From the NCBI GenBank assembly GCA_963665815.1, contig OY762463.1, positions 2,112,001 through 2,176,000 of the forward strand: DNA of 64,000 nt, read 5' to 3'. The notes under the pieces were generated by a model. That model made no database searches. It was not told the DNA's origin and was given only the letters and a program-made list of their open reading frames with translations. The DNA comes from Candidatus Cloacimonadales bacterium. GTDB taxonomy: Bacteria > Cloacimonadota > Cloacimonadia > Cloacimonadales > JAIOQZ01. This document shows, one piece after another, positions 8,115 through 45,037 of this stretch (positions are counted from its first letter, which is position 1; every line of letters begins with the position of its first letter). A program made the position numbers and the translations under genes.

Positions 8115-8819
8115 CTAAAAATAGTTTAGAATAACTTTTTTGTGTGGAACAGGATTCTTAAAAGTTATTGTACCTGTGTGTAATCCAAATTCCTTTATAT
8201 AAAGAGTAATGTCGTTTTGATCTAATAGTTTTACGTTGTTAAACTCAATTGGGAACGAAAACAGGAATGTCCTGCTCTTTGCCATTCCAAAGTTTCTATC
8301 CATATTATACAAACTTAGCTTCACTTTTCCGCTTTTTTCTGTATGTAGAAATACGTATTGATTCATTGAGAAAAGCAGTTTATTCAGCCATTCGTAGTAG
8401 GGAGTACGTCCTCCCTGCATTGTAGTAAAAACTATATCCTGGTCATCGTTTTCAAAACCGATTGTCAGTTTGAAAAAAATTGATTTATCATAGTTAATCC
8501 TGCTTTTAACAGCTTCTTCCTTTATGTCTGCAATTCTTTCATCGTATTTCTCCCGGGTGATTGTCGAATCCCTCAGAGCATCATCAATCTCAGCTATGGA
8601 ATACTTATACTCATTTACAAGCATCATATCCGTTGGAAGATACTGCAGTTTAAGTTTGAAGCCTTTTTTTGTTATTTTCTGAGCATAACCGGATTTTTCA
8701 CTGTAAAAGTAGTTTTCATACTCCTTCAATGAATCAATTTTTTTTGTACACCCGGTTATCAGCAATATAGCAATAAGGCAGATAACCTTGAGAAATAATC
8801 TAGAATCTACTGTTTGCAT
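8115..8819 (-). CDS. Hypothetical lipoprotein in the RHS operon
   Basis: Hydrophobic N-terminus ending in ITGC lipobox; overlaps the OmpH gene. Confidence 0.65.
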   Translation of the reverse strand: MQTVDSRLFLKVICLIAILLITGCTKKIDSLKEYENYFYSEKSGYAQKITKKGFKLKLQYLPTDMMLVNEYKYSIAEIDDALRDSTITREKYDERIADIKEEAVKSRINYDKSIFFKLTIGFENDDQDIVFTTMQGGRTPYYEWLNKLLFSMNQYVFLHTEKSGKVKLSLYNMDRNFGMAKSRTFLFSFPIEFNNVKLLDQNDITLYIKEFGLHTGTITFKNPVPHKKVILNYF

Positions 8820-9318
8820 ATTTTATAAAATCTGTTGTAATATCTACTTTTCTGTTAGCATGAAGGATATTCCCTCCGGAAACAGTACCAAAAATAATAT
8901 CATAGCCTTTCTTTTCTCCGAATTCTTCCAGAAGGGAGTTCAGTTCATCATAAACCGGCTGCATTAAATCATTTTCAAGCTTAGATGCTTTATCCTCAAT
9001 TGCTCTTCTGTATTTTGCATATTCGCGTCCCTTCTTATCAAGATCTTTCTTTTTATCTGCGAGTTTTTTCTTACCCCATTTGGAACCGTCTGCAACAATC
9101 TCTTCATTCATTTTATTTAATTCAGTTTCCAGGACCTGAATATTCTCTGTCCAGGCATTACTTTTGGTCTCGAAATCCTCTCTAGCTTTTATTGCACCAT
9201 TATATTTCTCCAGCATTACAGAAGAATCAATATATCTGATCTTTGGACTGTTTAAGTATGTATATGCCGAAAAAGCGATTGCTATTACTGCCAGAATTAT
9301 TGCTATGATATTTTTCAT
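8800..9318 (-). CDS. OmpH/Skp family periplasmic chaperone-like protein
   Basis: KIRYIDS N-terminal strand, long coiled coil, KGYDIIF..GNILHA..VDIT C-terminal motif. Confidence 0.85.
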   Translation of the reverse strand: MKNIIAIILAVIAIAFSAYTYLNSPKIRYIDSSVMLEKYNGAIKAREDFETKSNAWTENIQVLETELNKMNEEIVADGSKWGKKKLADKKKDLDKKGREYAKYRRAIEDKASKLENDLMQPVYDELNSLLEEFGEKKGYDIIFGTVSGGNILHANRKVDITTDFIKYANSRF

Positions 9319-9328
9319 TTATTATCCT

Positions 9329-10432
9329 TTACTGATTATTTTCTTTCAACTCATTAATTTCTTTTTTGAGTTCAATTACGTATAGTGTTAATTCTTCTAT
9401 CTTTTTAAGGAGAACAGCCTGATTATCCCCAACATTAAGTCCTTCCTTACTAACTTGATCTGCAGAAGGAACATCAGGTAAATGATTATTTTCAGCTATG
9501 AACTGCTCAAGTTCTTCCAGAGATTTGAGTTTGTAGTCATCTTTGAAAACATAATCCGGCCAGTATGTACTGTCAAAAGTCTCAACTCTTAACTGGCTTG
9601 CTACAACCTTACCTTTATAATGGAATGTCGGTTCGAAATCAGCTAAAAATCCAAGACTTTCAGTTTCCTGATTATCGTACCTTTGGGCAAATGTTTTTAA
9701 AACAAGTTCAAGTTTATTCGTTGTTTCATTATATGAACAGTCTTGAGTACTTGAAACCTGTATTGAACTGTAGAGAGTTTCAACACTTGTGGGTCTAGTG
9801 AGAGTAAATGTTGTGACTTTATTATTGTATTCATTTTTTAAATTTGTAGTTATAGAATAATTGGGAGAAGACTGAAATGTGTCTTTTTTCTCAAAAATCA
9901 ATCCGCTGCCATCCAAAGAAGTTCTGCAATAATCAGAATTACTTTGCGTAGTATTAAACAAAATTTTATTTTTGTCAAAAGTTGAATAAACTGTGTTAGC
10001 AGATCCATTATCGAATGACAAGTATGTCCCAGTTAAGGCGGATTTCGGTACAACTGTTGAACCTACATTTGTGTCCCAGTCACCTATCACTAAACCACCT
10101 GGGAAAAACTCCATTGATGATTTGACACAACTGGCATCTTCATCCCAGAAACCTACTGATAATTGATTTAGATTATCATGAAAGAAACCACATTGTCTAT
10201 CTCCTTCATTATACCATCCAAACTTCAATCGACTTGCATTAAACAAACCATATCTTTTTTCTGAAGTAACAATTTCTTCTGTAACTTTGAAGTTACCTTT
10301 TGTTTCTAGTTTCTCTGTCGGATCCTCAATCCCAATGCCTAATTTCCCATTAATAGTTAAATTCTCAGGATCATCTGCAAATAGCGCGATAGTCACTAAC
10401 ATTAACATTCCTAATAAAACACTTTTTTTCAT
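9329..10432 (-). CDS. Secreted fibre-like protein with C-terminal intramolecular-chaperone-like (S74/TMF-type) domain
   Basis: Signal peptide; GKLGIG..P..KL motif; C-terminal [31 protein letters not shown] coiled coil. Confidence 0.75.
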
Positions 10433-10624
10433 TTTTCCTCCAATTATTTTATATGTTGATTATTATATCTAATTAATTTTCCTCTACATAATTATTGCCA
10501 CTCTATATATCACCAATACAAGACATTGAATATACATTAAGTGTGTCAATAAATTTTGAGAAAAATGTTTACAACAAAATCTCTTCAACTTTTGTTGCAA
10601 AAAGCTTAATTTCAGGAGGAATAG

Positions 10625-12277
10625 ATGAGGAAGATACTTTTATTAATTGGTTTATCATTATTTTCAATAATACTAAATGCACAATACTTTTACGAGTGGG
10701 AATGGGTGCGAACGGCAGGTAGTACATATGGAGACGGAGCAATGTTTATTGATAGATCTTTTAATGGAGGCAATGCTATAGGGGGACTATGTTATAATGG
10801 TTGTAATTTTGGTGTCTATACTGCTTCTGGACAATCAACATCATATAAGGGGTATTTTATATCAACAATAAACTCTAATGGTACTTTTACAAGTTTAACA
10901 CATTCAGATTTCACTGATGAATGTCAAATTTTAGCATCAGCAGAAGACTCTGTTGGAAACAGAGTGTATATTGGGACATTTATGGATGAATTGTACATGG
11001 GTTCTCATCATGTTGTTTCTGTCGGAGCCCATAATACGTTTATTGCAAAACGGAGCGCAAATGGAAGCTGGTTGTGGTTAACCTCAATTCAAAGTTCAGA
11101 TACCGTAGTTCCCCATTCAGTAGATATTGACAGCGCAGGTAGAGTTTATGTATCCGGAGAATATCGTGATGATGCTTTGTTTGGACAATATTCGGTGAGT
11201 ATTTCTGGGGAGGATGACGGCTTTGTCGCATGTCTGGATTCTGCAGGTAATTTCCAATGGGTTAAAACATGTAGCGGAACTAACTATGATGAAGCTAATA
11301 AGATCATGGTGCATAATAATAGAATATATCATGTAGGATTCTTTATTGAGGCAGCACAAGTATTCGGTCAACCACTTACAGCTTCTCCGGGACCCTGTAA
11401 TTCTTATATTGCCTGCTTTGACACTCTGGGGAATGTTGTCAGTTTAGACCAGATACCTGGAAACAATATTGTAAAAGATTTTGCTTTCACGGATGATAAT
11501 GATTTATATATTCTTGGAGAATTCTATCAATCATTTACTCTTGACAATCATACTGTGACTTCGAATGGATTGTGGGATATTTTTGTGGCAAAATTAGATT
11601 CCACTGGAACATGCAGATGGTTAAAATCTGAAGGCTCAAGCGGTACTGAACATGTATATGAAATGGAATGTTATAATAATAGGATCTTTATAACTGGACA
11701 TTTAGAAGGTAGGACATACTTTGATAATTATATGGTTTTTTGCTCTTCCCAAAGAGAAAGTTTTGTGGCTGAAATTGATTCTTTATCCAGCTGGAAGTGG
11801 GTAAGAAGTTTGCAGAGTACGAATGATACATTTATAAGATCCATTTACGTTGCTGGTGATAATGAAATCTATGTTGCCGGTTCTTTTCTAGGAGATCTGG
11901 AGGTTGGAAATCAAGTAATTGCCAACAATGGTAGCTATGATATTCTAATAGCTAAGCTCTCTGATCCTTATCATTCAACCGACGACAACACCATAACCTA
12001 CGAACCGATATCTATCACAAACTACCCAAATCCGTTCAATCCGGAAACAACAATTGAGTATTCATTGAATAAACAAAGCAATGTAGAACTTACAGTTTAT
12101 AACATCAAAGGGCAGAAAGTAAAAACTCTCGTATCGGGCACAAAAGATCAGGGATTGCAGAAAGTAATCTGGAAAGGTGACGACAGCTCCGGACATAAAG
12201 TCGGTTCCGGGGTTTATTTTTATGTACTCAAAACACCAGACTCTACGATATCAAAGAAGATGCTGCTTCTGAAATAA
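10625..12277 (+). CDS. Secreted beta-propeller (SBBP-like repeats) protein with C-terminal FlgD-Ig/T9SS-type sorting domain
   Basis: Signal peptide; repeated 'D.F.AK.D..G...W' blades; C-terminal NYPNPFNPETTI..YNIKGQKV..W.G.D..G..V.SGVYF..KKMLLLK. Confidence 0.85.
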   Translation: MRKILLLIGLSLFSIILNAQYFYEWEWVRTAGSTYGDGAMFIDRSFNGGNAIGGLCYNGCNFGVYTASGQSTSYKGYFISTINSNGTFTSLTHSDFTDECQILASAEDSVGNRVYIGTFMDELYMGSHHVVSVGAHNTFIAKRSANGSWLWLTSIQSSDTVVPHSVDIDSAGRVYVSGEYRDDALFGQYSVSISGEDDGFVACLDSAGNFQWVKTCSGTNYDEANKIMVHNNRIYHVGFFIEAAQVFGQPLTASPGPCNSYIACFDTLGNVVSLDQIPGNNIVKDFAFTDDNDLYILGEFYQSFTLDNHTVTSNGLWDIFVAKLDSTGTCRWLKSEGSSGTEHVYEMECYNNRIFITGHLEGRTYFDNYMVFCSSQRESFVAEIDSLSSWKWVRSLQSTNDTFIRSIYVAGDNEIYVAGSFLGDLEVGNQVIANNGSYDILIAKLSDPYHSTDDNTITYEPISITNYPNPFNPETTIEYSLNKQSNVELTVYNIKGQKVKTLVSGTKDQGLQKVIWKGDDSSGHKVGSGVYFYVLKTPDSTISKKMLLLK

Positions 12278-12295
12278 ATATTTGAACTGAAATCA

Positions 12296-12370
12296 CCCTT
12301 CGACTCCGCTCAATGAACTTAATATACTGTTATTCTTTGCTTTACAAGCTCCCTGAGCGGAGTCGAAGGG
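12296..12370. repeat. REP-like inverted repeat (17-bp perfect arms), possibly also a terminator
   Basis: CCCTTCGACTCCGCTCA (12296-12312) and TGAGCGGAGTCGAAGGG (12354-12370) lie between convergent genes. Confidence 0.8.
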
Positions 12371-12393
12371 AATACTTTTATTGCTGAAAAATC

Positions 12394-12592
12394 AATAAAC
12401 CATAGTAAAATATATAGATGTATCTCTTCACCCATCCTTTAAATCTTAGCGATATGAACACTGAAGCTGACAAGGCAACTAACATAGACATATACACTAG
12501 TAAATCAGCAAAATCTTGATTATCAAACCAGTAACAATGAAAAGAGGTATACTATGTAGTAAGAATAACTTGATCCTTCTATAAATCTCCAT
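12394..12592 (-). pseudogene. Degraded small membrane protein, probable immunity gene of orphan RHS cassette 1
   Basis: AGGAGG then ATG at 12592; MEIYRRIKLFLLHSIPLFIVTGLIIKILLIY*; hydrophobic sequence continues in another frame. Confidence 0.35.
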
Positions 12593-12653
12593 TTTCTGCC
12601 TCCTGACGTAGATAATATAAGACATTGTTCCAAGGATAGAAATAAAAATTATA

Positions 12654-13285
12654 TTAATCGATTCTTAATTGATGTTTAGCATCATAGTAATTAAACTTGC
12701 CAGGTAATTTTTCTCCTGAATATTCTAATAGAGATTCATTGAATGAATTACTATTAACATTGAAACCTGAATTAACGCGACCAATTGGTACTAAATTCTG
12801 TAGTTCGTTTGGGTACGTTACAGGATCATCGGGATTATCAGGCAATGCCACAGTAAATTGATGTCTTCCATAAAAAGTAATTGGATTTTTTCCTTTTTTA
12901 ACGTTTAAACCTCTAGCTCCTGTGAATATTTCTTGTCCATCCGGATCTACAAATATAATTGGATTATTTGCACAGTATGCAAAAGGGCTACTCAATTCAT
13001 CTGCAGGATCAGGAGATGTCCAACGTGCAATCTGAGGGTCGTAATAACGTGCGCCGTAATGGTACCAAAGAGCTCGTAGCCGCAGGCGAGAGTCTCACCT
13101 CCGAAATTCGTAGGATGTAATCCGAGAATCATAGGAGGTACATTATTCTCATCTTCGTATTCCTTATTGTTGTAAAGGAATTTATTGGATTTATCTCCAT
13201 TATTAGAGGATAATCCTCCAAGTCTCATTCCAAACGGATAGTAGTGGTCTTCCTGGACTTTTAAAGCTGTGTTTCCCAGATACAA
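12654..13285 (-). pseudogene. Orphan RHS core plus toxin tip (cassette 1), frameshifted by a ~68-nt insertion
   Basis: QEDHYYPFGMR..KFLYNNKEY, then after the insert WYHYGARYYDPQIARWTSPDPADE.SSPFAYCANNPIIFVDPDG in another frame. Confidence 0.85.
13071..13141. mobile_element. Small two-hairpin insertion (REP/MITE-like) inside the RHS core
   Basis: 71 nt sit where alignment to cassette 2 expects one codon. Stems ACCTCC..GGAGGT and CTCG..GCC-TGC-GGC..CGAG. Confidence 0.6.
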
Positions 13286-13289
13286 TCCA

Positions 13290-13350
13290 TCCTCCTTACT
13301 CCATAATATGGCAAAATTGAGCTCATTAGTAGTAAATGGTCAAGAAAATT
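13290..13350 (-). promoter_or_regulatory. Promoter plus RBS block of RHS cassette 1 (copy 1 of a direct repeat)
   Basis: TTGACC-N18-CAATTTTGCCATATTATGGAGTAAGGAGGA, then a TTG start; near-identical block at 15432-15493. Confidence 0.65.
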
Positions 13351-13415
13351 ATGGTTCAGACAGAAAAAGCCAGAAAACGTGTTTCTGGCTATATATATTT
13401 TTTGCAAGAGTTGAA

Positions 13416-14591
13416 CTACTTTTTCTGTTCTTTCAAGTATTTTTCTTTAAGTTCAAGCAATGCTTCTTTTTCTCCCTTCTCATAGAATCTATAATCCAGC
13501 CAATAGTCCCAGTCTCCTGTAAATGTTGAAAAATCCGTTAAAGCTCTTTTAAACCATTTCATAGCCTCTTCTTCATTATTTATGCTATAATTTAAGTAGG
13601 CAAGATGCATAAACATTCTTTCATAATTCTGAAAATAAGTCTTTTTTTTATTGTAACTTTCATCTAAATCTTTCACCAGCTTTGTTATGCAATTTTCTGT
13701 ATTAATAGTCTTACGCAGTAATCTGCTTTCAATAGTTCTATCTGGACCATAATAAAGCCAAGATGTTAAAAATTCATCAATGAGAAAATCATGGGGAAAT
13801 TGAGCTTTCTTAAACTGAAGCTGCATTAAAGCAAAGAAAAATCCAAACATTCCACCATTTACTACTTCATCTTTAGGTTCAAATTGGGTTTTGAAATAGT
13901 AACTGTACATTTCAGGAAATTTGCCTAATCTTCTTAGTGTATAACATTTCATGATATTATAGAAATTAAACTCTTTAATAATTTGCAGGTTAATATTCTC
14001 TGATGAATATATTTCATCATTTTGCTTTTTTCTTAAAGCAATTGCAATTATTCTGAATCTTTCAAGCTCTTCTTCAATAACTTCATATTCTTTCATTTTT
14101 GCAAGATTGAAAAAGAAGTAACGGTATGGGACCAAATTTACTTTAAAGTACTCAGACAAAAGACTTTCTAAACTTTCATTTGATTCTTTTCCTCTTGAGA
14201 GTACATTTTTCCTAATCTCTAATAAATGAATATAGAAATACATGATATAACTTCCGGGATCATTTATGTTATGATAGTACATTTGCACATCATCAACGCC
14301 AAATTCCTCGAAACTGATAGGTTTCACTTTTAAAGTATCAATTCCTGATGCTATTAATCTATCAAGCTTGCTGTTTTCGAAAGTCAATGCTTTCTTAATA
14401 TCTGCATCTGCAATTTGATAATGTTCTATCAATGAATACATCATTTCTCTGTTAGCTTTACTATTATGTGCAAATATTTTTTTCAGTAGGTCAAAATCGT
14501 TCCCAAGATAGTCGTCTCTAATACAGTTCAGTAGAGATGAACAAGATATGATGAATATAAAAGCGACGATTTTTGTAATTTTTTTTCTCAT
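13416..14591 (-). CDS. Helical (TPR-like C-terminus) exported protein or lipoprotein; candidate immunity protein of RHS cassette 2
   Basis: Likely start MRKKITKIVAFIFIISCSSLLNC; directly downstream of the toxin tip; AT-rich. Confidence 0.55.
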   Translation of the reverse strand: MRKKITKIVAFIFIISCSSLLNCIRDDYLGNDFDLLKKIFAHNSKANREMMYSLIEHYQIADADIKKALTFENSKLDRLIASGIDTLKVKPISFEEFGVDDVQMYYHNINDPGSYIMYFYIHLLEIRKNVLSRGKESNESLESLLSEYFKVNLVPYRYFFFNLAKMKEYEVIEEELERFRIIAIALRKKQNDEIYSSENINLQIIKEFNFYNIMKCYTLRRLGKFPEMYSYYFKTQFEPKDEVVNGGMFGFFFALMQLQFKKAQFPHDFLIDEFLTSWLYYGPDRTIESRLLRKTINTENCITKLVKDLDESYNKKKTYFQNYERMFMHLAYLNYSINNEEEAMKWFKRALTDFSTFTGDWDYWLDYRFYEKGEKEALLELKEKYLKEQKK

Positions 14592-14667
14592 TTCTAATCC
14601 TTTTCTATTAGAGTTTTCCTTTAAAATCATCCCAAATATTGTAATAGAAATTATCTAATCCCATTTT

Positions 14668-15447
14668 TCATAATATTGTGGCATATCCTCTAACTTTTTT
14701 GTTACCAGCCATCAATGAAGCATATGAGGTAGCTCTTTGCGATAATTTCAGAGCTGGATATTTAGTTTTCAAACTCAGTTTATCAGTGCCAATCATTGTT
14801 CCCCCAACAATAATTCGCTTAACATTAATTGTGTTAATCACAGAAATACATGTATCAATGTTGTCTTCTTGTACTTCAGTTAGTGTGTTATCTTGATTTA
14901 GCTGTGATTTAAGACCTTGTAAATCAGCTTTTGTTTTAGACAGTTCCCATTTATGGTGTCCTGAAGTTTTTACATCCAAATCCCCTTCAGAATCTTCTAT
15001 TGTTAGACCGTCAATGTACTCCATGCAAGCATTTCTAAGCTCCTCAGGTGTATTTATATCACTCAAATCTTCATCGGATAGGACATAATATAATGCATCA
15101 CATTCTTCGAAATAGTATTCACAATTAATAATTACACTTGCTTCAATAGCCCCATCCGGATCAAGGAAGTTCACCGGATCGTTATGGCAATACACATACG
15201 GACTAAAGAACTCATCAGCCGGGTCAACTGCCATCCAGCGTCCGAGTTGTGGATCGTAATGTCTTAAACCGTAATGGAAAATATCCAGTCCTAAATCATC
15301 CTCCAATTCTTTTCCGTTATAGAGGAACTTGTTTTCCTGCCCGGTATCTGTGGACATTCCGCCTAACCTCATCCCAAACGGGTAATAGTGGTCTTCCTGA
15401 AAATTCGTTACGTTATTGCCTACGAACAATTCTCCTCCTTGCTCCAT
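14668..15447 (-). CDS. Orphan RHS core plus C-terminal toxin-like domain (cassette 2)
   Basis: QEDHYYPFGMR, FLYNGKE, HYGLRHYDPQLGRW..DP, SPYVYC.NDPVNFLDPDG, then ~160 aa variable tip. The true start may be the TTG after AAGGAGG. Confidence 0.88.
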   Translation of the reverse strand: MEQGGELFVGNNVTNFQEDHYYPFGMRLGGMSTDTGQENKFLYNGKELEDDLGLDIFHYGLRHYDPQLGRWMAVDPADEFFSPYVYCHNDPVNFLDPDGAIEASVIINCEYYFEECDALYYVLSDEDLSDINTPEELRNACMEYIDGLTIEDSEGDLDVKTSGHHKWELSKTKADLQGLKSQLNQDNTLTEVQEDNIDTCISVINTINVKRIIVGGTMIGTDKLSLKTKYPALKLSQRATSYASLMAGNKKVRGYATIL

Positions 15448-15493
15448 AATATGGCAAAATTGAGCTCATGTGTGGATAATGGTCAAGATAAAT
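15432..15493 (-). promoter_or_regulatory. Promoter plus RBS block of RHS cassette 2 (copy 2 of the direct repeat)
   Basis: TTGACC-N18-CAATTTTGCCATATTATGGAGCAAGGAGGA. Confidence 0.65.
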
Positions 15494-18049: not shown

Positions 18050-21000
18050 ATGATAAACGTAAAACTTAATGGAATTGATATAAAAACAGAAGCCGGAAAG
18101 ACTATTCTTGAACTGGCTGAAGAACATGGAATCAGAATCCCGACATTATGTCATGATGAAGAACTGAATCCTTACGGATCATGCTGGGTCTGTGCTGTCG
18201 AAGTCAAAGGTGCACGCGGATTTGTTACTGCCTGCGGTACAAAAGTATATGACGGTATGGAAATTCAGACTGACACCGATGAGGTGCATAAAGCAAGAAA
18301 AATGGCTCTGGAACTGCTCCTTTCCGATCACTATGCGGACTGTGAAGCTCCTTGTAAAATAGCCTGCCCGGATCAGGTAGATATTCAGTCCTACATTGCA
18401 TTTATTGCAAACGGACAATATCACGAAGCTGTGAAGGTAATCAAAGAAAGACTGCCTATGCCATTGTCAATCGGTCGTGTATGCCCTGCTTTCTGTGAAG
18501 AAGAATGCCGTCGAACAATCGTTGATGAGCCTATTGCAATTCGTCAGCTTAAAAGACACGCTGCAGACTTCGATCTGAATGATCACTGGACTTACGTACC
18601 GGAAAAAGCTGAGAATAAAGACAAGAAAGTTGCTATCATAGGTGGTGGACCTTCAGGGCTTACCTGTGGATTCTATCTTTCCAATGACGGTTACGATGTG
18701 ACTGTATTCGAATCAGCACCAAAAGCAGGCGGCTGGTTAAGATATGGTATTCCTGAATACAGACTGCCAAAAGAGATTCTGGATATGGAAATCGATCTCA
18801 TGTGCAAGAACGGAATGGAAATTAAAACAGGTGTGGAAATAGGTAAAGATATTCACCTTGCTGACCTGTGTAAAGACTACGATGCTGTTTATCTCGCAAT
18901 CGGAGCTCAGAATGCTGTTCCAATGAGAGTAAAGGGCGGAGACCTGAAAGGTGTTATCCTTGGTGTAGATTTCCTCAGAGCTCATGCACTGGGAGAAAAA
19001 CAGGATATTGGTAAAAAAGTAGCGATCGTCGGTGGTGGTAACACTGCTGTTGACTGTGCCAGAACTTCTAAGAGACTAGGTGCGGACGTTACAATTATAT
19101 ACAGAAGAACCAGAAAAGAAATGCCTGCCGAAGAGTTCGAAGTTGATGCTTCCGATGAAGAAGGAATCAAATTCTATATGCTGACAAATCCAACTGAGTT
19201 TGTCGGTGAAAACGGTAAGCTGAAAAAGCTTGTTCTGGAAAAGATGGAGCTTGGTGAACCTGATGCAAGCGGGAGAAGAAGACCTGTTCCTACGGGTGAG
19301 ACTTTCGAAGAAGAATTCGACTGCGTAATCCCTGCAATCTCGCAGGTTCCGGAAGTAACATTCCTGGCAGACGAGAAAAACTTTGTCGATGGTAAACCGC
19401 TTCCACTCACACGCTGGAGTACTCTGGAAACAGATGAAAACACAATGTACTCCGGTATGGACAATCTGTTTGCCGGCGGTGACTTCAGAAGAGGTCCTGC
19501 TACAGCTATTGAAGCTATTGCAGACGGTAGACTTGCCTCCGAAACAATCGACAAATTCCTGCAAGGGGAAGAAATAGAAGTTAACAATTGGAAATTCGAT
19601 TCCAAAAAAGCTAAAAAGCTCAAAGAAGTTGCTGCGGAAGAATACGAGCAATTCGAAAAGATACCTCGTGCTAAGATGCCGGAGCTTGAGCCGGAAGACA
19701 GAGTTACCAACTTTAAGGAAGTTGAAACAGGCTTCTGCGATGAGGAAGCTATCAAGGAAGCTAACAGATGTCTTGAGTGCGGTTGTCAGGTTAACGAAAC
19801 ATGTGTACTCAGAGAGTACTCTACAGAGTACGGAATCGACTTCACCAGATTTATCGGTGACAAGAACAGACACCCGATCGATACAACTCATCCGTTCATC
19901 CTCAGAGATGCCAACAAATGTATCAAGTGCGGTCGCTGTGTAAGAATCTGTTCCGAAGTTCAGGGAGCCGGTGTTCTCGGCTATATGTACCGTGGATTCA
20001 CCAGTATAGTTGCTCCTGAATTCGGTGAAAGCCTTACAAAAACAACCTGCGAAAGCTGTGGTAAATGTATAACTGTCTGTCCTGTAGGTGCTCTTACAGA
20101 AAAGAATGTTAACTACAAGATGCAGCCGAGAACAGGTGGAAAAGTTGTTCAGAACTCAGGTATTTCCGGACTTGGAGCATCAATAAGTGTTAGTGTGAAT
20201 ACTGATTCCGTAACCATGGTTGAACCTGCAATAGAATCAGGATTTAACGGCAGAGACCTTGCATTTGAAGACAGATTCGGATGGCAGATTTTTGAGCATG
20301 GTGAAAAACTTCTCAAACCGGAGAAAAACGGAAAGACAATCTCCTGGGAAGAAGCTGCCGATACAATCAAAGCTAAGCTTAAAGATGCGAAATCAAAGAA
20401 GATATACATGTCTGCCGATGTAACCAACGAAGAAGTTGTGCTTATGAATGCTGTAGCAGAAAAGATTGGGGCAAAACTCGAATCTCTTTCCCTGCTTACA
20501 GACTTCTCAGATGGTATTGAAGCTTGCCCTGTTAAGAAATACGAAGAGATTGCACAGGCAGAAGTTATGGTGCTGGTTGGTGAAGTTGCTCCGCTTCTCA
20601 GAACAAAAGCAAGACAGAACCAGCGTAAAGGTGCTAAACTCATTGTTGTGGATGCACCGGATATTAACTTCAACAATTTCGCTGACGATCAGTTTGCAAC
20701 CTGGGGAGAATTCGAGAAAGAAGAACTTCCTGCTAAGACTCTGTTCATTTACAGCCGTCATTCAGTTGATGAAAAGACAGCTTATGAGATCTGGAAGAAA
20801 GCAGCGAATATATGTGATTTTTCAGATGGATCTGGTATCATAAACTCTACTGAGTGGGCTAACAGAAAAGGTCTCTTAAGAAGAGGTGTAGAAGCTGTTA
20901 TTGCTGAAAACGCTGACTTTGTGATTCTGTATGGTGAAACCCCGACAGACGAGCAGTGGAAAGCTATCAGGAACTCCGGATTTGTTATGCAGATTAACAC

Positions 21001-21361
21001 TCATAACAGTGTAGATGCCGATATGGCAGTTCCACAAGCTTCATATCTGGAAATCACAGGTACAGCAATTTCAGATGACTGTCGACTTGTTTCTTACAGC
21101 AATCCTAAGAAATCACCGATTATGCTGAACACAATCAATATGTTCCGTAACGCAGGTATTCTGGAAGACGCTGTTAACACAGAAGAATACTGGGCAGAAC
21201 AGGCGAAAGTCCTGTATCATCACCAGTGCTGCTGTTGTGTAAACAAACCGAAACTGATTGATGAGCTTGAACAGGTTAAGGAAGTATCTGATCAGGTAAT
21301 ACCTGTAAATCTCCTTAAAACCGAGATGATAGAAAACCTGAGAAAGCTTACAAAAGAATAG
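18050..21361 (+). CDS. Fusion of NuoG-like FeS, GltD/NfnB-like FAD-NADPH and degenerate molybdopterin-oxidoreductase domains (StnC-like)
   Basis: PTLC..GSCWVC, APCKIACP, GRVCPAFCE, GGGPSG, GGGNTAVD, YRR, EANRCLECGC, KCIKCGRCVRIC, CESCGKCITVCP; no H-cluster motifs seen. Confidence 0.85.
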   Translation: MINVKLNGIDIKTEAGKTILELAEEHGIRIPTLCHDEELNPYGSCWVCAVEVKGARGFVTACGTKVYDGMEIQTDTDEVHKARKMALELLLSDHYADCEAPCKIACPDQVDIQSYIAFIANGQYHEAVKVIKERLPMPLSIGRVCPAFCEEECRRTIVDEPIAIRQLKRHAADFDLNDHWTYVPEKAENKDKKVAIIGGGPSGLTCGFYLSNDGYDVTVFESAPKAGGWLRYGIPEYRLPKEILDMEIDLMCKNGMEIKTGVEIGKDIHLADLCKDYDAVYLAIGAQNAVPMRVKGGDLKGVILGVDFLRAHALGEKQDIGKKVAIVGGGNTAVDCARTSKRLGADVTIIYRRTRKEMPAEEFEVDASDEEGIKFYMLTNPTEFVGENGKLKKLVLEKMELGEPDASGRRRPVPTGETFEEEFDCVIPAISQVPEVTFLADEKNFVDGKPLPLTRWSTLETDENTMYSGMDNLFAGGDFRRGPATAIEAIADGRLASETIDKFLQGEEIEVNNWKFDSKKAKKLKEVAAEEYEQFEKIPRAKMPELEPEDRVTNFKEVETGFCDEEAIKEANRCLECGCQVNETCVLREYSTEYGIDFTRFIGDKNRHPIDTTHPFILRDANKCIKCGRCVRICSEVQGAGVLGYMYRGFTSIVAPEFGESLTKTTCESCGKCITVCPVGALTEKNVNYKMQPRTGGKVVQNSGISGLGASISVSVNTDSVTMVEPAIESGFNGRDLAFEDRFGWQIFEHGEKLLKPEKNGKTISWEEAADTIKAKLKDAKSKKIYMSADVTNEEVVLMNAVAEKIGAKLESLSLLTDFSDGIEACPVKKYEEIAQAEVMVLVGEVAPLLRTKARQNQRKGAKLIVVDAPDINFNNFADDQFATWGEFEKEELPAKTLFIYSRHSVDEKTAYEIWKKAANICDFSDGSGIINSTEWANRKGLLRRGVEAVIAENADFVILYGETPTDEQWKAIRNSGFVMQINTHNSVDADMAVPQASYLEITGTAISDDCRLVSYSNPKKSPIMLNTINMFRNAGILEDAVNTEEYWAEQAKVLYHHQCCCCVNKPKLIDELEQVKEVSDQVIPVNLLKTEMIENLRKLTKE

Positions 21362-21385
21362 AAAATAAACGAAAAATATACGAAG

Positions 21386-21420
21386 CAGGCTGTCGATGAT
21401 TCGACGGCCTGTTTTTGTTT
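21386..21420 (+). terminator. Intrinsic terminator
   Basis: CAGGCTGTCGA-tgat-TCGACGGCCTG followed by TTTTTGTTT. Confidence 0.8.
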
Positions 21421-21462: not shown

Positions 21463-21573
21463 TTACATAATTATTCAAATCGAAATTTCCGGGTGCGTAC
21501 AAATAACTGGGTCTGAAGGAGACCCTAATTAGTTTCTCTTAGTAGGAGTAAAGATGATAAGCTCTAAAGCAGC

Positions 21574-21597
21574 GTAGAGACAACCGGACGGTTGTCT
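21574..21597 (+). repeat. GTAG-type REP
   Basis: GTAG followed by the palindrome AGACAACC-GGAC-GGTTGTCT. Confidence 0.6.
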
Positions 21598-21623
21598 TAG
21601 TAATTTCGTAGAAGGTTTTGTAT

Positions 21624-21657
21624 ACCTTCGCAATGGTCCTTAGACCTTGCGAATGGT
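21624..21657. repeat. REP cluster 1 (RAYT 3' flank)
   Basis: ACCTTCGCAATGGT-ccttag-ACCTTGCGAATGGT. Confidence 0.8.
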
Positions 21658-21688
21658 GTTCATGGAGCATTTTGTACAAATCTCCTAA

Positions 21689-22177
21689 TCAAGTATTCTT
21701 ATTCATTTCCAGAAATTCTTCAACACTTCCAAAATGCTTTATATAGAAATTTTCATTTACAAATGAATCATTCAGCAAGTAATTTAAAGATGAATACTGC
21801 AATTGCTTTTCAGTTTCAGGATTTTCATGTATATAGTCAATAATCTTCAGTAAATAATCATCCGTATCAATTAATCTGGATTTCACTCTACCTTCGAATA
21901 AAGTGCCAGATCTGCAATGCCTTTTATTAAAATACTGCGAATATCTATTGAAAATCCACTTTAACCAGTTTGAAAGAGGCCTGCTTCCTGTCTGTTTCAC
22001 AAGAAGATGATAATGATTAGGCATCAGGGCAAAAGCATAAATTTCAACATAACTTTCATGCTCTGAGTTTTCGATAATGTTTATTAATTTCATATAATCT
22101 GCATCATCAATAAATATGAGTTCCTTGTTACATCCCCTGTTAAATAAATGATAATATTTACCCTCAATATACTTCAT
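21689..22177 (-). mobile_element. REP-associated tyrosine transposase (RAYT; Y1_Tnp/IS200-like HUH)
   Basis: YHLFNRG, LMPNHYH (HUH), GTLFEGR, YIHENP catalytic Tyr; flanked by REP hairpins on both sides. Confidence 0.88.
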
Positions 22178-22221
22178 CTGTCCTCACATATATTTAATTT
22201 GATAATTAACATGTCAAGCCC

Positions 22222-22302
22222 ACCATTGCGAAGGTCCAGGGACCATTCGCAAGGGCTTTTGTCATGTCCCCTTCGCAATGGTCCTAAGACCTTGCGAATG
22301 GT
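22222..22302. repeat. REP cluster 2 (four arms)
   Basis: ACCATTGCGAAGGT, ACCATTCGCAAGGG, CCCTTCGCAATGGT, ACCTTGCGAATGGT. Confidence 0.85.
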
Positions 22303-22314
22303 TCTCTGGAAATA

Positions 22315-24072
22315 TCAACTCACACCATTAGCTTCTTTTATCTTTCCTACCAGCTCATTAAGTCTATCATTGAGATCAAAGTTATCAGTTTTAGCAGCAT
22401 TAGCTTCTATTTCTACATATTTCTTTGCTACGAGGACTTTATTAATAGATTTTGTGTTTTCACTATCTAAATAGGTCAGTTTATGATATTTATGTTTTTT
22501 CTGTTTATTAGCTATCTTATGAACCTTACTTATTGCATTGTTATAATTATCTATGTCCAGGTAGTTCTCAATTTCTCCACAGTCTGTTATCCAGACAAAT
22601 TGTTGATTGTCGGTGAATGCATTCTTGATTCTTTCCTTTGTAGCGTTAAGTTTGCTATTTTTTTGTTTTTTGTCACTATCAATCAAAATGCAGGAGTGTC
22701 TACCTAACTTTGCAAGTTCAATAAAATCATTTTCAACCTTTTTTTCATCCTCATAATCTAAATGACTCAGTAATCTTCCACCATAAAACATTATAGAATA
22801 GTGGATACCTTCCTTCAGTTTCTCGTCCTTAGATTTTATCCAGTGATTTAAGTATATTCTGTCAGAGGGACCCTCAACCCAGATTACATAATTTGACAGC
22901 AATAAATCACTTGGCTTATATCCAAGATCTGATAAAATCTCAAGCTTATCATTGCTTCCTTTTACTTTTGTACATTTTGTAAAATCGTTTTCCAGTCTAC
23001 AATGGTAAATATCTACATATGGAATGTCAAAAAAAGAGTTAGCATGTGTAGTAATAAAATATTGATTCCTTGTATTGTTGTATAAGTACTCAATGAATTT
23101 CTTCTGGAGTATTGGGTGGATATGCAGCTCCGGTTCTTCAATGCAGAAAATAACATTATCGTGCAGTGTTACAGCTGTTGCCAGAATTATCAATTCATGG
23201 ATGCCCGTACCAAGGCTCTCGATCGGTAATGGTTTTCCGTTTATCCTGACTGTCAAACTACTACTGTCTGATGCTGGGAATATTTCAACGCTGTCCTCAT
23301 TGAGAATTTCCTTCACAAAGTTTTGAATTTCGTTGAATTGATCTAATCTTTCGTTTAAATGAGCATGGTCTTCAGGATTTCTGAGTTTAAGTAATGATGT
23401 TCTCATCCCTTTCCCATCATAAATTTCTGATTCTATTTCGTGATCAGATGCTCCTGAAGCAGTAATTTCCCTTATACCATCAATTAATTTCACATCAAAA
23501 TGACCTGTATATCCATTTAAAGCATTCATGCATTCCCTATGGAGTTCCTTAAAATCCATAGGATAGTTCATGTAAATACTTCCAGGATAGAAAGATGGGT
23601 TCCTCTTTCTAACTTCTTTAACGAAGTTCATGAGAGTATCTTCAATTGTTTTTGTGAATTCTTTATTAGATTCCGTGTCAATATCTGTTCGTTTTAATCT
23701 TTGTTTTAGAACTGTAAAATAAATCCAAATTGATTCTTCATATTGGTTTACTTTATTCCAAATATTTGAGAATCTATTCCGAATTTTTTCATAGTAATTT
23801 TTATTTTCACTATCATCTGAATTTTGATTTATCTGCAGACTAAAACTCATTCTACTATTTAAGGTATTCTTTGGTGTATCTAATTCATTGTTAAAATCAA
23901 ATTCATCTTCAGATTTATTGAAGGAGTTTAGCTTATTTATAAAACGCAGTAAATTGGACTTTCCACAATTGTTAGCACCAGCAATAATGTTAATTTTTCC
24001 ACAGTTCTCAAGAGTCACAAATTCATCACCAAAACTACGGTATCCTTTTATTCTTATACCATCAAGAAACAT
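22315..24072 (-). CDS. OLD-family-like ABC ATPase plus TOPRIM nuclease (candidate defence protein)
   Basis: Walker A GANNCGKS, signature LGTG, Walker B IEEPE, TTH switch; TOPRIM IWVEGPSD and IDSD. Confidence 0.82.
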   Translation of the reverse strand: MFLDGIRIKGYRSFGDEFVTLENCGKINIIAGANNCGKSNLLRFINKLNSFNKSEDEFDFNNELDTPKNTLNSRMSFSLQINQNSDDSENKNYYEKIRNRFSNIWNKVNQYEESIWIYFTVLKQRLKRTDIDTESNKEFTKTIEDTLMNFVKEVRKRNPSFYPGSIYMNYPMDFKELHRECMNALNGYTGHFDVKLIDGIREITASGASDHEIESEIYDGKGMRTSLLKLRNPEDHAHLNERLDQFNEIQNFVKEILNEDSVEIFPASDSSSLTVRINGKPLPIESLGTGIHELIILATAVTLHDNVIFCIEEPELHIHPILQKKFIEYLYNNTRNQYFITTHANSFFDIPYVDIYHCRLENDFTKCTKVKGSNDKLEILSDLGYKPSDLLLSNYVIWVEGPSDRIYLNHWIKSKDEKLKEGIHYSIMFYGGRLLSHLDYEDEKKVENDFIELAKLGRHSCILIDSDKKQKNSKLNATKERIKNAFTDNQQFVWITDCGEIENYLDIDNYNNAISKVHKIANKQKKHKYHKLTYLDSENTKSINKVLVAKKYVEIEANAAKTDNFDLNDRLNELVGKIKEANGVS

Positions 24073-24170
24073 AAAATCTCCTTAAGTTACTTCTGAAGAC
24101 AATCATGTATATGAAAACATTATTTCAATATAATGTCAAGCTCATAATATTTAGCGCTACCGCTTATCCG

Positions 24171-24230
24171 ACCATAACGAAGGCCTTGGGCCCTTCGCAA
24201 GGGCATTTCCTCTGTCCTCTTCGGAATGGT
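24171..24230. repeat. REP cluster 3 (degenerate)
   Basis: ACCATAACGAAGG..CCCTTCGCAAGGG..CTCTTCGGAATGGT. Confidence 0.7.
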
Positions 24231-24251
24231 TAGCTTTGACCAAGTCATTCC

Positions 24252-24968
24252 CTAATACAAGGCAAAATAAACCAGCAATACAGAAATCATACTGAACAGA
24301 GTTCCCAGCATATAGTACTCCGTAAAAGCTCTATTCTGGTTAAATTCATCAAAGCGTATGATTGTTTTTGCTGTAAATATCAAACCAACTGCTGTATACT
24401 GATTGTTTATAAGAAATATCAGAACAAGCAGTCTCTCCAGATTCCCGATCAATTTCCCGGTCTTTTTAACTTCTCTGTTTTCTTCCTGCTGCTCAAATGG
24501 ATTAACATCATTGAAAAACTTAACAAATATTGTATTAATTGGTCGGAATATGATCATAACAACTACTGCAATTCTTATGTATTTGAACAAGAAGATATGA
24601 TTAAAGAAATCATGTTTGATAATCAATTCATTATATGCAGCTCCCTCAAGAATCCTACTAAAAATCAATATGGAAATTACGAAACTAATCTGCTCAAGAA
24701 CAAAGTACTTTTTGGTTGTGTTCTCACCTGAGGAGACTTTCTTCATTATCAGATTCAGCAGGTTCAAGACTGTTAATGTACATAGCCCCCATAATACTGC
24801 TTTTGTACTGAATACCAGAAAAATTACAATAGCTGATGCAAACATTCTTCCTGTTAACTTCATGGCAGATATACGATTCTCAGATGAGAACTCTCTGTAT
24901 CCCATTTCCAGATAGTAACCTGTCAGAACATAATAGAACAAAAGGATAATCATTAAATCATAATTCAT
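24252..24968 (-). CDS. DUF3307-family membrane protein
   Basis: Multiple TM segments; GKLIGNLER..AKTIIRF..EYYMLGTL motif; overlaps the SatD-like gene. Confidence 0.75.
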   Translation of the reverse strand: MNYDLMIILLFYYVLTGYYLEMGYREFSSENRISAMKLTGRMFASAIVIFLVFSTKAVLWGLCTLTVLNLLNLIMKKVSSGENTTKKYFVLEQISFVISILIFSRILEGAAYNELIIKHDFFNHIFLFKYIRIAVVVMIIFRPINTIFVKFFNDVNPFEQQEENREVKKTGKLIGNLERLLVLIFLINNQYTAVGLIFTAKTIIRFDEFNQNRAFTEYYMLGTLFSMISVLLVYFALY

Positions 24969-25635
24969 TTTCACACTCCTTAAGATAGAACATTGTTTCT
25001 TTAAATACTTCTTTATGCTTTTTGTATTTGTAATAATCTGAGAAAGATAATCTCCTTTGCAGACTGGACTGATTTATCTTCAGTGTTTCAGCCGCTTCAT
25101 TCTGGTTCTGAGCAAAGTGTTCCATTATCCTTATTGCTTCTCTCTGCTTCTCCGTCCAATTACTCTCTATAGATGATATCGCAATCAGAGTTGAATTAAG
25201 CAGATTGCTCAGGATTTCTATATGCCTGTTATGAGATGCAATTTTGATCATGATATTGCTGTAAGCTGTTTTATTGCTATGGCTCAGATGTTTTATGTCC
25301 ATCAATGATTCTCTTGCCTTGTAATAAGCCGGTCCGTCCGCACCAATAGCCATTTCAGGATTAATCCCTGTGGATATTTCTCCTATACCAATCCCAACCC
25401 TGAGCTTTACAGGATGGAGTTCAAATTGTATCTCACTCATAATATCAAGTATTCTGCTGCCGTCTGTAAGCAACCCCTGAAACTCATCACCGATTGTAAT
25501 GAGGAACTTGGCTGCTATCACAGATTCATACCTGCTGTTGATTCTCTTCAATTCTTTATCCAGAGCTATCTGAACTGATTTTCTATCATCCAGATCCCGT
25601 GATTTAACAATATCCGATATTATAGCGTAATACAT
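24958..25635 (-). CDS. SatD-family protein (cyclase/GGDEF-like N-domain, C-terminal HTH)
   Basis: IISDIVKSR, ITIGDEFQG, DGPAYYKAR, NQNEAAETLKINQSSLQRRL; likely start ATG at 25635 after GAGG. Confidence 0.8.
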   Translation of the reverse strand: MYYAIISDIVKSRDLDDRKSVQIALDKELKRINSRYESVIAAKFLITIGDEFQGLLTDGSRILDIMSEIQFELHPVKLRVGIGIGEISTGINPEMAIGADGPAYYKARESLMDIKHLSHSNKTAYSNIMIKIASHNRHIEILSNLLNSTLIAISSIESNWTEKQREAIRIMEHFAQNQNEAAETLKINQSSLQRRLSFSDYYKYKKHKEVFKETMFYLKECENEL

Positions 25636-25651
25636 GAACCACCTCTTTAGA

Positions 25652-25727
25652 TTATGCATATTATTCTTTTATGTATTTTTTTATGCATAATATATCTTTA
25701 TGTATAATATCTTACATTAATTGTCAA
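25652..25727 (-). promoter_or_regulatory. SatD promoter with four TTATG(C/T)AT(A/T) boxes
   Basis: Boxes at 25652, 25669, 25681 and 25698; TTGACA on the minus strand at 25722-25727. Confidence 0.5.
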
Positions 25728-25826
25728 GAAGAAAATATTTGATTGGAAAGGATTAGAAAGTTGTTAGAGTAAAGATGCTTTGTTTTGAGCAAAACAAAAC
25801 TCTAATGTGTAGATCATGTCAAGACC

Positions 25827-26002
25827 ACCATTGCGGTTTCTCTGGATGTATTTCTTCGAAGACATCTACGGGTCTGCTTCGCTGACCATGCGCAAGGGCT
25901 ATTACTCTGTCCCCTTCGCAATGGTTGCAAAACTTGCGAATGGTGTACCTTGATCATTAGCAGCAACTCCACCTTTATGAAGGCTTTCAGCTATACGCAA
26001 GG
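25827..26002. repeat. REP cluster 4, with internal hairpin insert and a degenerate extra unit
   Basis: ACCATTGCG.., ACCATGCGCAAGGG, CCCTTCGCAATGGT, AACTTGCGAATGGT; degenerate unit at ~25971-26002. Confidence 0.75.
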
Positions 26003-26011
26003 ACACAAATC

Positions 26012-27061
26012 CTACCCTATCACACCACCACCAATAAGTCTATCTCCGCGGTAAAATACTGCGGACTGTCCGGGAGTAATTGCACTTACGGGATTAACCA
26101 GCTTCACATCCAGTCTGCCGGTTTCCGCATCATAACTCAAGGATTCAACTTCTACAGCACGACTGTTATAGCGAATCTGCACCATCAGATCTTCTGCACT
26201 GAACTCAGCATCAAACCAGTTTACAGCATGAGCAGAGAATGTATCGTCCATCAGCAGATCACGATTTTCCGTAACCCACACAGTGTTTGTCTCTGCATCC
26301 AGCTTGTACACATACAGCGGAGCTCTCCAGGCTATATCAAGCCCTTTACGCTGACCTATTGTATACAGGATTATCCCATTGTGTCGGCCCAATACCTCAC
26401 CTGTGTCGAGTTTTATGTCTCCGGTTATAAATTCTACTCTATCCCTCAAAAAGTCTTTATAATGCCCTTTAATAAAGCAGTTGTCCTGGCTTTCCTTGTT
26501 TTTGCTTATATGCAGGCTGTTTTCTTCTGCCAGATCGCGGACAAACTCCTTGTCTACGGATTCCAGCGGGAAAATCAGTCTTCTAAGCTGTTCAGGAGAA
26601 AGCCTCCAGAGCATATAACTCTGATCCTTACGTTTATGATCACTGCGTTCTATATAAATTCTATCGTTTTCACTAATCAATTTTGCATAGTGTCCGGTAG
26701 CCATTTTATCATATCCGGCTTTTACAACCGCATCCATAAACAGCCCGAACTTGATAGTCGGATTACACAAAGCACATGTATTAGGTGTTCTGGCACATTT
26801 GTATTCTTCAATAAAGTTACCTACAACAATCTGTTCAAACTCTTTCTCAAGATGCACAACATGGTGTTCAATCCCGAGAGTTTCACAAACTCTTGCGGCG
26901 TCTTCCACCGCCTTGACAGAGCCTTCATGCTCTCCAAAACCGTATGCTTCATTGTCAAACTGCTGCATGGTAAAACCGGCAACCTCATGCCCCTGTTCCA
27001 TCAGCATAATTGCTGCTGCAGAACTGTCCAGCCCACCGCTCATTGCAATCCCGATTTTCAT
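26012..27061 (-). CDS. mnmA: tRNA-specific 2-thiouridylase
   Basis: AMSGGLDS, CNPTIKF, ATGHYA, KDQSY, TIGQRKG, TPGQSAVFY. Confidence 0.95.
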   Translation of the reverse strand: MKIGIAMSGGLDSSAAAIMLMEQGHEVAGFTMQQFDNEAYGFGEHEGSVKAVEDAARVCETLGIEHHVVHLEKEFEQIVVGNFIEEYKCARTPNTCALCNPTIKFGLFMDAVVKAGYDKMATGHYAKLISENDRIYIERSDHKRKDQSYMLWRLSPEQLRRLIFPLESVDKEFVRDLAEENSLHISKNKESQDNCFIKGHYKDFLRDRVEFITGDIKLDTGEVLGRHNGIILYTIGQRKGLDIAWRAPLYVYKLDAETNTVWVTENRDLLMDDTFSAHAVNWFDAEFSAEDLMVQIRYNSRAVEVESLSYDAETGRLDVKLVNPVSAITPGQSAVFYRGDRLIGGGVIG

Positions 27062-44800: not shown

Positions 44801-44876
44801 TGGCAGGACAGGCAGGAATCGAACCCGCAACCCCTGGTTTTGGAGACCAGTGCTCTGCCAATTGAGCTACTATCCT
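44801..44876 (-). tRNA. tRNA-Trp(CCA)
   Basis: Cloverleaf AGGATAG..CTCCAAA anticodon loop..GTTCGA..CCA end. Confidence 0.95.
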
Positions 44877-44887
44877 ACCGAAATTTA

Positions 44888-45037
44888 TTATTTAGTTTGC
44901 TTATGGCTAGTGTGCTTATTACATTTAGGACAATACTTTTTCAACTCAAGACGACCAGGGTGGTTACGTCTATTCTTTGTAGTTGAATAGTTTCTGTTCT
45001 TGCATTCAGCACAAGCCATTATAATTATTTCTCTCAT
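44888..45037 (-). CDS. rpmG: 50S ribosomal protein L33 (Zn-binding type)
   Basis: Translated by hand: [49 protein letters not shown]. Confidence 0.93.

Follow-up and report, generated by a model that had tools for sequence, protein, structure and literature searches.

A RAYT gene and its REP hairpins beside accessory genes in a Cloacimonadales genome

Gene content of the island

We examined a 64,000-nucleotide stretch of a Candidatus Cloacimonadales genome (assembly GCA_963665815.1, contig OY762463.1, positions 2,112,001 to 2,176,000 of the forward strand; hereafter the window, to which all coordinates refer), and in particular a short run of genes that includes one for a REP-associated tyrosine transposase (RAYT) and that is interspersed with hairpin-forming repetitive extragenic palindromic (REP) sequences. 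The region is best read as an accessory island of ~4.4 kb between core genes, in which a solitary OLD nuclease gene and a SatD/DUF3307-like operon are accompanied by copies of a REP doublet in each intergenic gap. All four genes of the island (RAYT, OLD, a membrane protein and SatD) are on the minus strand and the REP sites bound the gene blocks, an arrangement already described by a first-pass annotation made from the sequence alone. The genes, and the region upstream of the last of them, are listed here.

21689..22177, minus strand: RAYT, a Y1 HUH transposase of 162 amino acids (HUH residues H55 and H57; Tyr115 in a YIHxNP motif)
22315..24072, minus strand: OLD-family ABC-type ATPase with a C-terminal TOPRIM-like domain, 585 amino acids, solitary (Pfam, PADLOC, profile)
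24252..24974, minus strand: membrane protein of 240 amino acids, tentatively DUF3307-like (ESM Atlas likeness; 17-nt overlap with the SatD gene)
24958..25659, minus strand: SatD-family protein, 233 amino acids (Pfam SatD PF16264, 150.1 bits, cutoff 29, residues 10-218)
25660..25815, minus strand: AT-rich sequence upstream of the SatD gene; contains three TATGCATA-type repeats (read from the sequence)

The RAYT protein matches Pfam Y1_Tnp (40.1 bits, cutoff 23), and its H55, H57 and Y115 are invariant across 36 aligned homologues. A single-sequence search of the PDB gave no match and a profile was needed; the profile of the family matches one PDB entry only, E. coli TnpArep (4ER8, E 1.2e-8). 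Members of the family match the NCBIfam model REP_Tyr_transpos in 36 of 36 cases and the IS200 model in 1 of 36. We found 419 homologues, the nearest 57% identical, several of which are labelled RayT by their sources. The gene has REP units on both sides (21617-21664 and 22215-22309) and no TnpB partner gene. It is co-oriented with the array and lies at its downstream end, and is not divergent from the other blocks with a promoter reading into them.

The OLD protein matches Pfam AAA_15 (75 bits, cutoff 32.1) and, in PADLOC, AriA, GajA and Old, with the OLD-like_TOPRIM model at 21.3 bits, under its cutoff of 23.2. Its profile matches the OLD nuclease of retron Eco8, 6P74 and AriA; as single sequences, neither OLD nor SatD gave a match in the PDB. 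Residues E400, D404, D465 and D467 are invariant in 26 homologues, and in our own reading of the alignment they would belong to the TOPRIM motifs. It is probably an anti-phage nuclease. No partner gene accompanies it. In a search of 5.8 billion proteins, of which 7,999 candidates were scored, the best homologue reaches 43% identity, and the named matches come from other phyla.

The 17-nt overlap of the SatD and membrane-protein genes indicates that they form an operon. The membrane protein has no match in Pfam, including DUF3307 (PF11750), even at E 10; its likeness to DUF3307 clusters in the ESM Atlas (0.90, with 28 of 30 matches being DUF3307 and 212 of 256 features in common) makes the DUF3307 label of the first-pass annotation a lead only, while its RAYT, OLD-like ATPase-TOPRIM and SatD labels all stand. 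SatD has homologues at the level of orthologues (87% and 76% identical), and some SatD homologues are annotated with a helix-turn-helix of the sigma-70 region 4 type. The block has ~350 nt of upstream sequence containing repeated TATGCATA motifs; the part at 25660-25815 looks like its own regulatory region, and the repeats may be an operator for the SatD protein. PADLOC gave no match for SatD or the membrane protein, so that the description of the cargo as defence-type holds for OLD and fails for the other two. The two blocks also appear to have different histories, OLD being without a close homologue and SatD having one at 87%.

A hairpin repeat in each intergenic gap

Two 12-mers define the repeat. 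Allowing one mismatch, CCATTGCGAAGG has 5 matches in the 64-kb window against 0.13 expected and CCATTCGCAAGG has 6 against 0.09, counts that were reached in none of 100 shuffles in either case; the matches of both are confined to 21625-25943. A REP unit comprises the two 12-mers and an 8-nt loop and folds into a stem of 14 bp, both arms of which have a bulged A; the fold z-scores of intact units lie between -5.1 and -6.4. A covariance model (R1), made from 108 REP units and run over all 64 kb with filters off, finds four strong units, at 21617-21664 (-), 22215-22262 (+), 22262-22309 (-) and 25905-25951 (-), and one weak unit at 24184-24237 (E 0.12). The first-pass annotation had reported one repeat family at four sites and had noticed it nowhere else in the window, and both statements are borne out: R1 gives no match of E <0.4 outside 21617-25951. 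At 24171 and 25827 the copies have decayed or are variants. Decayed units carry a 1-nt loop indel by which they escape plain mismatch counting, and nhmmer recovers only 3 units in the window. Rfam contains no RNA family that matches in or beside the island. The individual repeat features are as follows.

21555-21601: small 'A' module (GCGTAGAGACAA...) preceding the RAYT-side REP; recurs beside REPs in the closest relative
21617..21664, minus strand: single intact REP unit, 3' of the RAYT gene (R1 56.3 bits, E 9.7e-17; fold z -5.8/-6.0)
22215..22309: intact REP doublet, similar to a REPIN (by definition a REP doublet that folds into one long hairpin) or BIME (bacterial interspersed mosaic element); units 22215-22262 (+) and 22262-22309 (-), 15-nt spacer (R1 56.1 and 49.3 bits; z -5.1/-6.4)
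24164..24237: decayed REP doublet, orientation and spacer as in the other two (R1 E 0.12 (-) and 5.8 (+); z only -1.9)
25816..25951: REP doublet nearest the SatD upstream region; first unit 25827-25897 (+), second 25905-25951 (-); 86% identical in register to 22241-22282
25967-26002, plus strand: fifth, decayed REP unit just before the mnmA stop codon (found by eye and alignment; missed by R1)

The doublets at 22215, 24164 and 25816 are three copies of one ~100-nt element in one orientation, with a common left flank (ATGTCAAG.CCA) and spacer (GGGC.TTT...CTGTCC). The middle copy is decayed and is 79% identical in register to 22241-22282 (family D3). In the third copy the minus-strand unit, 25905-25951, is nearly intact (R1 35.3 bits, E 1.5e-9), and its partner at 25827-25897 has an expanded loop with a second hairpin inside (GATGT...ACATC), a variant that also occurs at 4 distinct loci in the closest relative. 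Within a doublet, neither unit is an exact inverted copy of the other: their stem centres are swapped (GCG/CGC versus CGC/GCG) and the arms pair in crossed order, so that two hairpins form instead of a single long one. Accordingly, both the minimum-free-energy and the centroid structures of 22215-22310 are two separate hairpins on either strand, not the single long hairpin of a REPIN. The decayed unit at 25967-26002 shares its left flank with the RAYT-side unit, and the regions 22190-22254 and 25967-26002 form a direct repeat of ~60 nt (flank plus unit) that brackets the cargo.

The repeat does not appear to provide each block with a promoter. The TTGACA found beside REPs was considered as a -35 box for each block and rejected, as the sigma-70 promoter scan, which is itself uninformative, lists none there and shows no excess (20 found, 19.8 expected). 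The hexamer belongs to the REP flank in the closest relative too.

The REP family in other genomes

Scanning species-representative genomes with the pattern CCATTSSSAAGG-N8-CCATTSSSAAGG returned 111 stretches (loci designated L) totalling 1.17 Mb, with 128 distinct exact REP units in 24 assemblies, whose record titles are nearly all Cloacimonadota or uncultured bacterium. The counts outside the window come from these other assemblies; the source genome is represented by its 64 kb. The four assemblies richest in exact units are given here.

Richest assembly: 33 units on 29 contigs
Closest relative of the window: 20 units on 5 contigs, at least 3.9 Mb
Third-richest assembly: 11 units on 2 contigs
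Fourth-richest assembly: 10 units on 10 contigs

The hairpin is conserved across many species and is backed by compensatory changes. In the 108-unit alignment 97.4% of the cells of the 14 stem pairs are paired, 5 pairs have changed in both partners, and covariation scores 0.216 against 0.060, with none of 500 shuffles reaching the observed score. Eight of the 14 pairs are fixed by the search pattern and are uninformative in this respect; the covariation is in the pattern-free pairs, with GC to CG at the stem centre and several pair types in the apical stem.

The surroundings of the repeat in this lineage appear from the alignments to be a mosaic of small modules, BIME-like overall. A AACGCAAAGCGTTGT palindrome, the 'A' module (GCGTAGAGACAA plus a hairpin) and the expanded-loop REP intermix around the REPs of L047, L055, L060, L062 and L094, and in the window at 21555-21601 and 25827-25897. 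Elsewhere in the closest relative, six REP units at L105:59-702 (CALODV010000013.1) form three doublets with a tandem spacing of 271 nt. In the assembly with 33 units (L011, L031, L040, L045, L052 and other CAZRXY/CAYYLA loci), units often lie tens of bases from contig ends and have long conserved flanks on both sides, which suggests a high-copy REPIN that breaks short-read assemblies. Nine units with a GCC/GGC stem centre and conserved flanks of their own occur in a metagenome-assembled genome labelled Cytophagales (JAAFKA01; L003, L006, L025, L041, L049, L050, L068); either the family crosses phyla or this bin is mislabelled.

Pfam searches of 133 open reading frames (ORFs) around REPs at 15 long loci of three assemblies, the ORFs being called by a simple greedy script rather than a gene finder, show that the neighbours there are for the most part housekeeping proteins or proteins of the surface. 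Among them are ValRS, AlaRS, MgsA, trigger factor-ClpP-ClpX, acetate kinase, Obg, Hsp33 and ABC transporters, and sorted surface proteins are numerous. At L015, REP sites bracket tig-clpP-clpX with no RAYT nearby. Clustering on the scale of kilobases is general, in that 22 of the 55 REP sites with 9 kb of sequence on both sides have another site within 9 kb. The first-pass annotation had named a REP scattered regardless of cargo as the finding that would speak against its proposal of a cassette platform, and this is the distribution observed (24 assemblies, mostly housekeeping neighbours). In another species, AAA_15/AAA_21 ATPases of a defence-like kind lie beside or near REPs at L057:10229-11930 and L015:13691-14920, the former together with an ORF of 142 amino acids between a PKD surface protein and rnfC.

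We compared eight proteins of the window with all 111 loci by tblastn. RAYT has 3 matches, at L086 (84% amino acid identity, truncated), L075 (50%) and L054 (49%); OLD, the membrane protein and SatD have none in the 1.17 Mb. At L075 and L054 the RAYT gene has REP clusters on both sides, no cargo of the OLD or SatD type and neighbours that differ from those in the window. L054 holds four REP sites in 8 kb, and the block that they bound encodes RNase R-YicC and is syntenic with L023. The homology of L023 and L054 stops at L054 position 7573, adjoining the REP unit at 7574-7627; in an all-against-all comparison of the loci (65-77% identity), this pair is the only one informative for breakpoints.

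An empty junction in the closest relative

The one close relative available for comparison is represented by the locus L086. Over 632 bases it is ~91% identical to the window at the nucleotide level, and its order is a RAYT remnant, one intact REP unit and the 3' end of mnmA. The 3.75 kb corresponding to 22255 to 26002 of the window is absent. The remaining REP unit has the left flank and loop of the RAYT-side copy in the window, and the flank of the mnmA side begins exactly after CGCAAGG, a string common to the RAYT-side and mnmA-side REP copies. Variable cargo with a breakpoint inside a REP, which the first-pass annotation had anticipated between relatives, is thus observed once. The RAYT remnant in L086 lacks ~185 bp including the start codon, by a deletion between two TGATAAT strings, so that both deletions end in identities of 7 nt (TGATAAT and CGCAAGG).

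Because this remnant is at the same place beside mnmA and is 91% identical in nucleotide sequence, RAYT is inherited in place; its copy number is low, with the nearest other homologue at 57% identity and three RAYT matches among the 111 loci. A SatD homologue that is 87% identical to that of the window (P0242) lies on a contig of 105,305 bp, equal in length to the contig of L086; the relative thus probably keeps SatD, although not between RAYT and mnmA. A second locus on the contig of the relative, L094, was considered as the orthologue of the SatD upstream region on account of two matching stretches, one of 29 nt (93%) and one of 49 nt (76%), and was rejected. Both stretches are repeat modules, the first being present at 5 distinct loci and the second at 4 (counting L083 as the same DNA as L060).

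Genomic setting

The island is distinguished by composition, with a GC content of 0.30-0.37 across 21500-25700 versus 0.41-0.47 in both flanks, and is flanked by the following features.

18050..21361, plus strand: left flank, last gene of a NuoE/NuoF/GltD-NuoG-like ('Stn-like') operon (Pfam, NCBIfam)
21382-21415: terminator-like hairpin of the left-flank gene (terminator scan)
26012..27061, minus strand: right flank, mnmA (NCBIfam MnmA, 362 bits; Pfam)

Beyond mnmA are murA and prmC, then fusA, rpsG, rpsL, rpoC, rpoB, ribosomal protein genes, nusG and tuf. Neither an integrase nor any other mobile gene was found among the 10 ORFs located between 16 and 30 kb and, of the 47 other ORFs that encode 80 amino acids or more, the 34 from 950 to 55461, a scan that leaves out the last 13 ORFs, at 55.5-64 kb. 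There is no tRNA gene in or beside the island; five (Trp, Thr, Gly, Tyr, Thr) lie around tuf at 44801-46695, within the core region of ribosomal and rpoBC genes. The left quarter of the window, which is poorly characterised, contains an ORF of 1721 amino acids at 2939-8104 which, like its neighbours at 8115-15447, has no NCBIfam match at E 1e-20, and a pair of sequences at 13201-13348 and 15345-15491 that are 78-88% identical and 2.14 kb apart in a low-GC region of unannotated ORFs (families D4 and D11). Just past the ORF at 10625-12277, an inverted repeat of 25 nt (12296-12370; 88% complementary, 25-nt gap) is unrelated to REP.

Interpretation

We consider that the locus is probably a REPtron, that is, a RAYT with its cognate REPs, at the edge of a low-GC island, and that its REPs have been used passively by host recombination. 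RAYT would bind and nick REP hairpins in single-stranded DNA and thereby spread or maintain the repeats, which are densest beside it, and the REPs would act passively as homology or microhomology for the recombination machinery of the host. A block could be gained when a circle recombines with a resident REPIN, leaving a REPIN on both sides, and lost by recombination or slippage between REP copies, leaving one copy behind. In either direction the REPs appear, from the junction in the relative, to mark the breakpoints of cargo turnover, and the footprint there does not tell whether RecA, replication slippage or RAYT acted. For the most part the locus is a well-behaved example of a known system with an ordinary domesticated RAYT. 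PMC3116915 describes REPIN clusters beside RAYT genes, as in P. fluorescens SBW25; PMC5581495 treats REPINs flanking RAYTs as a core feature and RAYTs as inherited in the manner of housekeeping genes; and PMC3733652 reports REPtrons lost by deletion.

Several observations weigh against this reading. The decayed unit on the mnmA side is only ~70% like the RAYT-side copy, which is poor homology for RecA. The apparently relocated SatD implies that a block was translocated, which plain deletion does not explain and passive recombination explains less easily. Four REP sites per 4.4 kb is denser than elsewhere in these genomes, save the RAYT locus L054, and the REP copies of the source genome were counted within the 64-kb window only. 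Finally, the sole NCBIfam match of the RAYT protein itself, to REP_Tyr_transpos, is at 48.5 bits, under the 80-bit cutoff of that model.

It may be that the coincidence of REPs and block boundaries has no bearing on how the island arose: it would have formed otherwise, REPINs would later have hopped into the gaps near RAYT, and the REP at the junction in the relative would be an ancestral intergenic one. REPs do occupy the gaps between genes of all kinds, their clustering over kilobases is general (22 of 55 sites), clusters of REPINs next to RAYTs are known (PMC3116915) and the flank and spacer common to the three doublets are what one would expect of copies of a single element. However, the L086 junction matches, to the base, the 3' end of the REP unit and the corresponding end of the decayed unit, which is unlikely if REPs were uninvolved, and the doublets at 24164 and 25816 are only 79-86% like the intact one and therefore not recent arrivals. 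We regard this explanation as rather doubtful.

The proposal of the first-pass annotation was an integron-like platform, in which RAYT cuts and rejoins single-stranded DNA at REPs of the same strand, a block is excised with one REP as a circle and inserted at another REP, and blocks accumulate beside RAYT. The anatomy, the gene labels and, in one instance, a REP-exact junction are in its favour: each block is bounded by REP doublets of the same orientation, the ~60-nt direct repeat brackets the cargo and the relative keeps exactly one unit at its empty junction, the OLD and SatD blocks differ in history, the cargo is low in GC, and RAYT is intact in the window and broken in the relative without cargo. 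What does not fit is that REPs are scattered and bracket housekeeping operons without a RAYT nearby, that the boundary REPs are decayed, that none of the 3 cargo proteins has a homologue in the 1.17 Mb around other REPs, and that the RAYT loci L075 and L054 are without such cargo, the block at L054 being RNase R-YicC in synteny with L023. RAYT is moreover co-oriented with the array and downstream of it, the SatD block has its own upstream region, only OLD is defence-type, the case consists of two blocks and one comparison, and ordinary recombination or slippage between repeats predicts the same junction. A literature search gave no link of RAYT to integron function in title or abstract among the matches listed.

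Passive host recombination is preferred to this proposal because the boundary REPs are decayed, identities of 7 nt end both deletions in the relative, such cargo is lacking at the other RAYT loci and no cassette is shared. That RAYT itself moves blocks, which is the integron-like step, is improbable. An analogue of integrons based on an HUH enzyme, with the REPs by RAYT as attachment sites and a block plus REP cut and pasted by that enzyme, alone or with host replication, is in our view likewise improbable; we do not rate it lower because a moved SatD block would suit cassettes better than it does simple deletion. Should it be true, such an analogue could collect defence and other accessory genes and give RAYTs a benefit to their host, and its footprints would be the junction with a single REP and no cargo, the orphan state of OLD and the apparent relocation of the SatD block in the closest relative.

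That the whole of 21617-26002 is one RAYT-driven composite transposon of the IS200/IS605 kind, with OLD and SatD as passengers, is very improbable: the segment is low in GC throughout, sits between core genes and could have its ends at REP 21617-21664 (-) and the decayed unit 25967-26002 (+), but the relative has a RAYT remnant at the same place by mnmA with 91% nucleotide identity, and no second copy was found, the nearest RAYT being 57% identical and the other RAYT loci 49-50% with different neighbours.

The locus bears on the question of what RAYTs and REPs do for their host, and contributes a further RAYT-REP family, from an uncultured phylum that has been little studied. It also offers a natural test case, with an intact RAYT and two REP-bounded blocks in the window, where the relative has only one REP and a RAYT that is broken. 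The same pattern in more relatives would show REPs to mark the ends of accessory-gene turnover.

Comparison with known systems

Transposons such as IS608 move by peel-and-paste single-strand transposition and recognise subterminal hairpins in single-stranded DNA. RAYT belongs to the same superfamily as the enzymes of the IS200/IS605 group (Pfam Y1_Tnp). It differs from them in having neither a multi-copy element (nearest homologue 57%) nor TnpB, and in a family that matches the RAYT model in all 36 members and the IS200 model in one.

An integron consists of IntI, attI and a divergent array with the promoter Pc, and its cassettes are promoterless ORFs with one recombination site each. The island in the window is similar in its co-oriented blocks, separated by imperfect hairpin sites with bulged bases, in the breaking-joining enzyme at the end of the array, and, in the single comparison available, in cargo that the closest relative does not share, a lone site remaining at its junction. 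Unlike in integrons, the enzyme is a Y1 HUH protein rather than a tyrosine recombinase of the integrase family and is co-oriented and downstream. The boundaries here are doublets, the SatD block has an upstream region, sites are found genome-wide beside housekeeping genes, and no common cassettes were found at the 111 REP loci.

BIMEs are built of REP types that alternate. Two REP types alternating in orientation are also seen here, in combination with the 'A' module and the hairpin of the expanded loop as further small elements, and the tandem array of 271-nt period in L105 is of the same kind, although the present sequences are unrelated to enterobacterial REPs.

The nearest parallel is the REPtron, or RAYT-REPIN system, of E. 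coli (TnpA_REP) and P. fluorescens SBW25. The present locus departs from it in belonging to Cloacimonadota, for which the literature search on REP or RAYT returned one passing mention, and in its low copy number, as the relative has 20 exact units over 3.9 Mb or more. No GTAG tag is seen at the foot of the hairpin, the doublet forms two hairpins, an expanded-loop variant exists and REP doublets separate accessory blocks. The features held in common are a Y1 HUH enzyme with a tyrosine of the YIHxNP type that is related to 4ER8, a gene flanked by its own imperfect-palindrome hairpins, mostly in inverted doublets and dispersed between genes, and a cluster of repeats beside RAYT such as PMC3116915 describes in SBW25.

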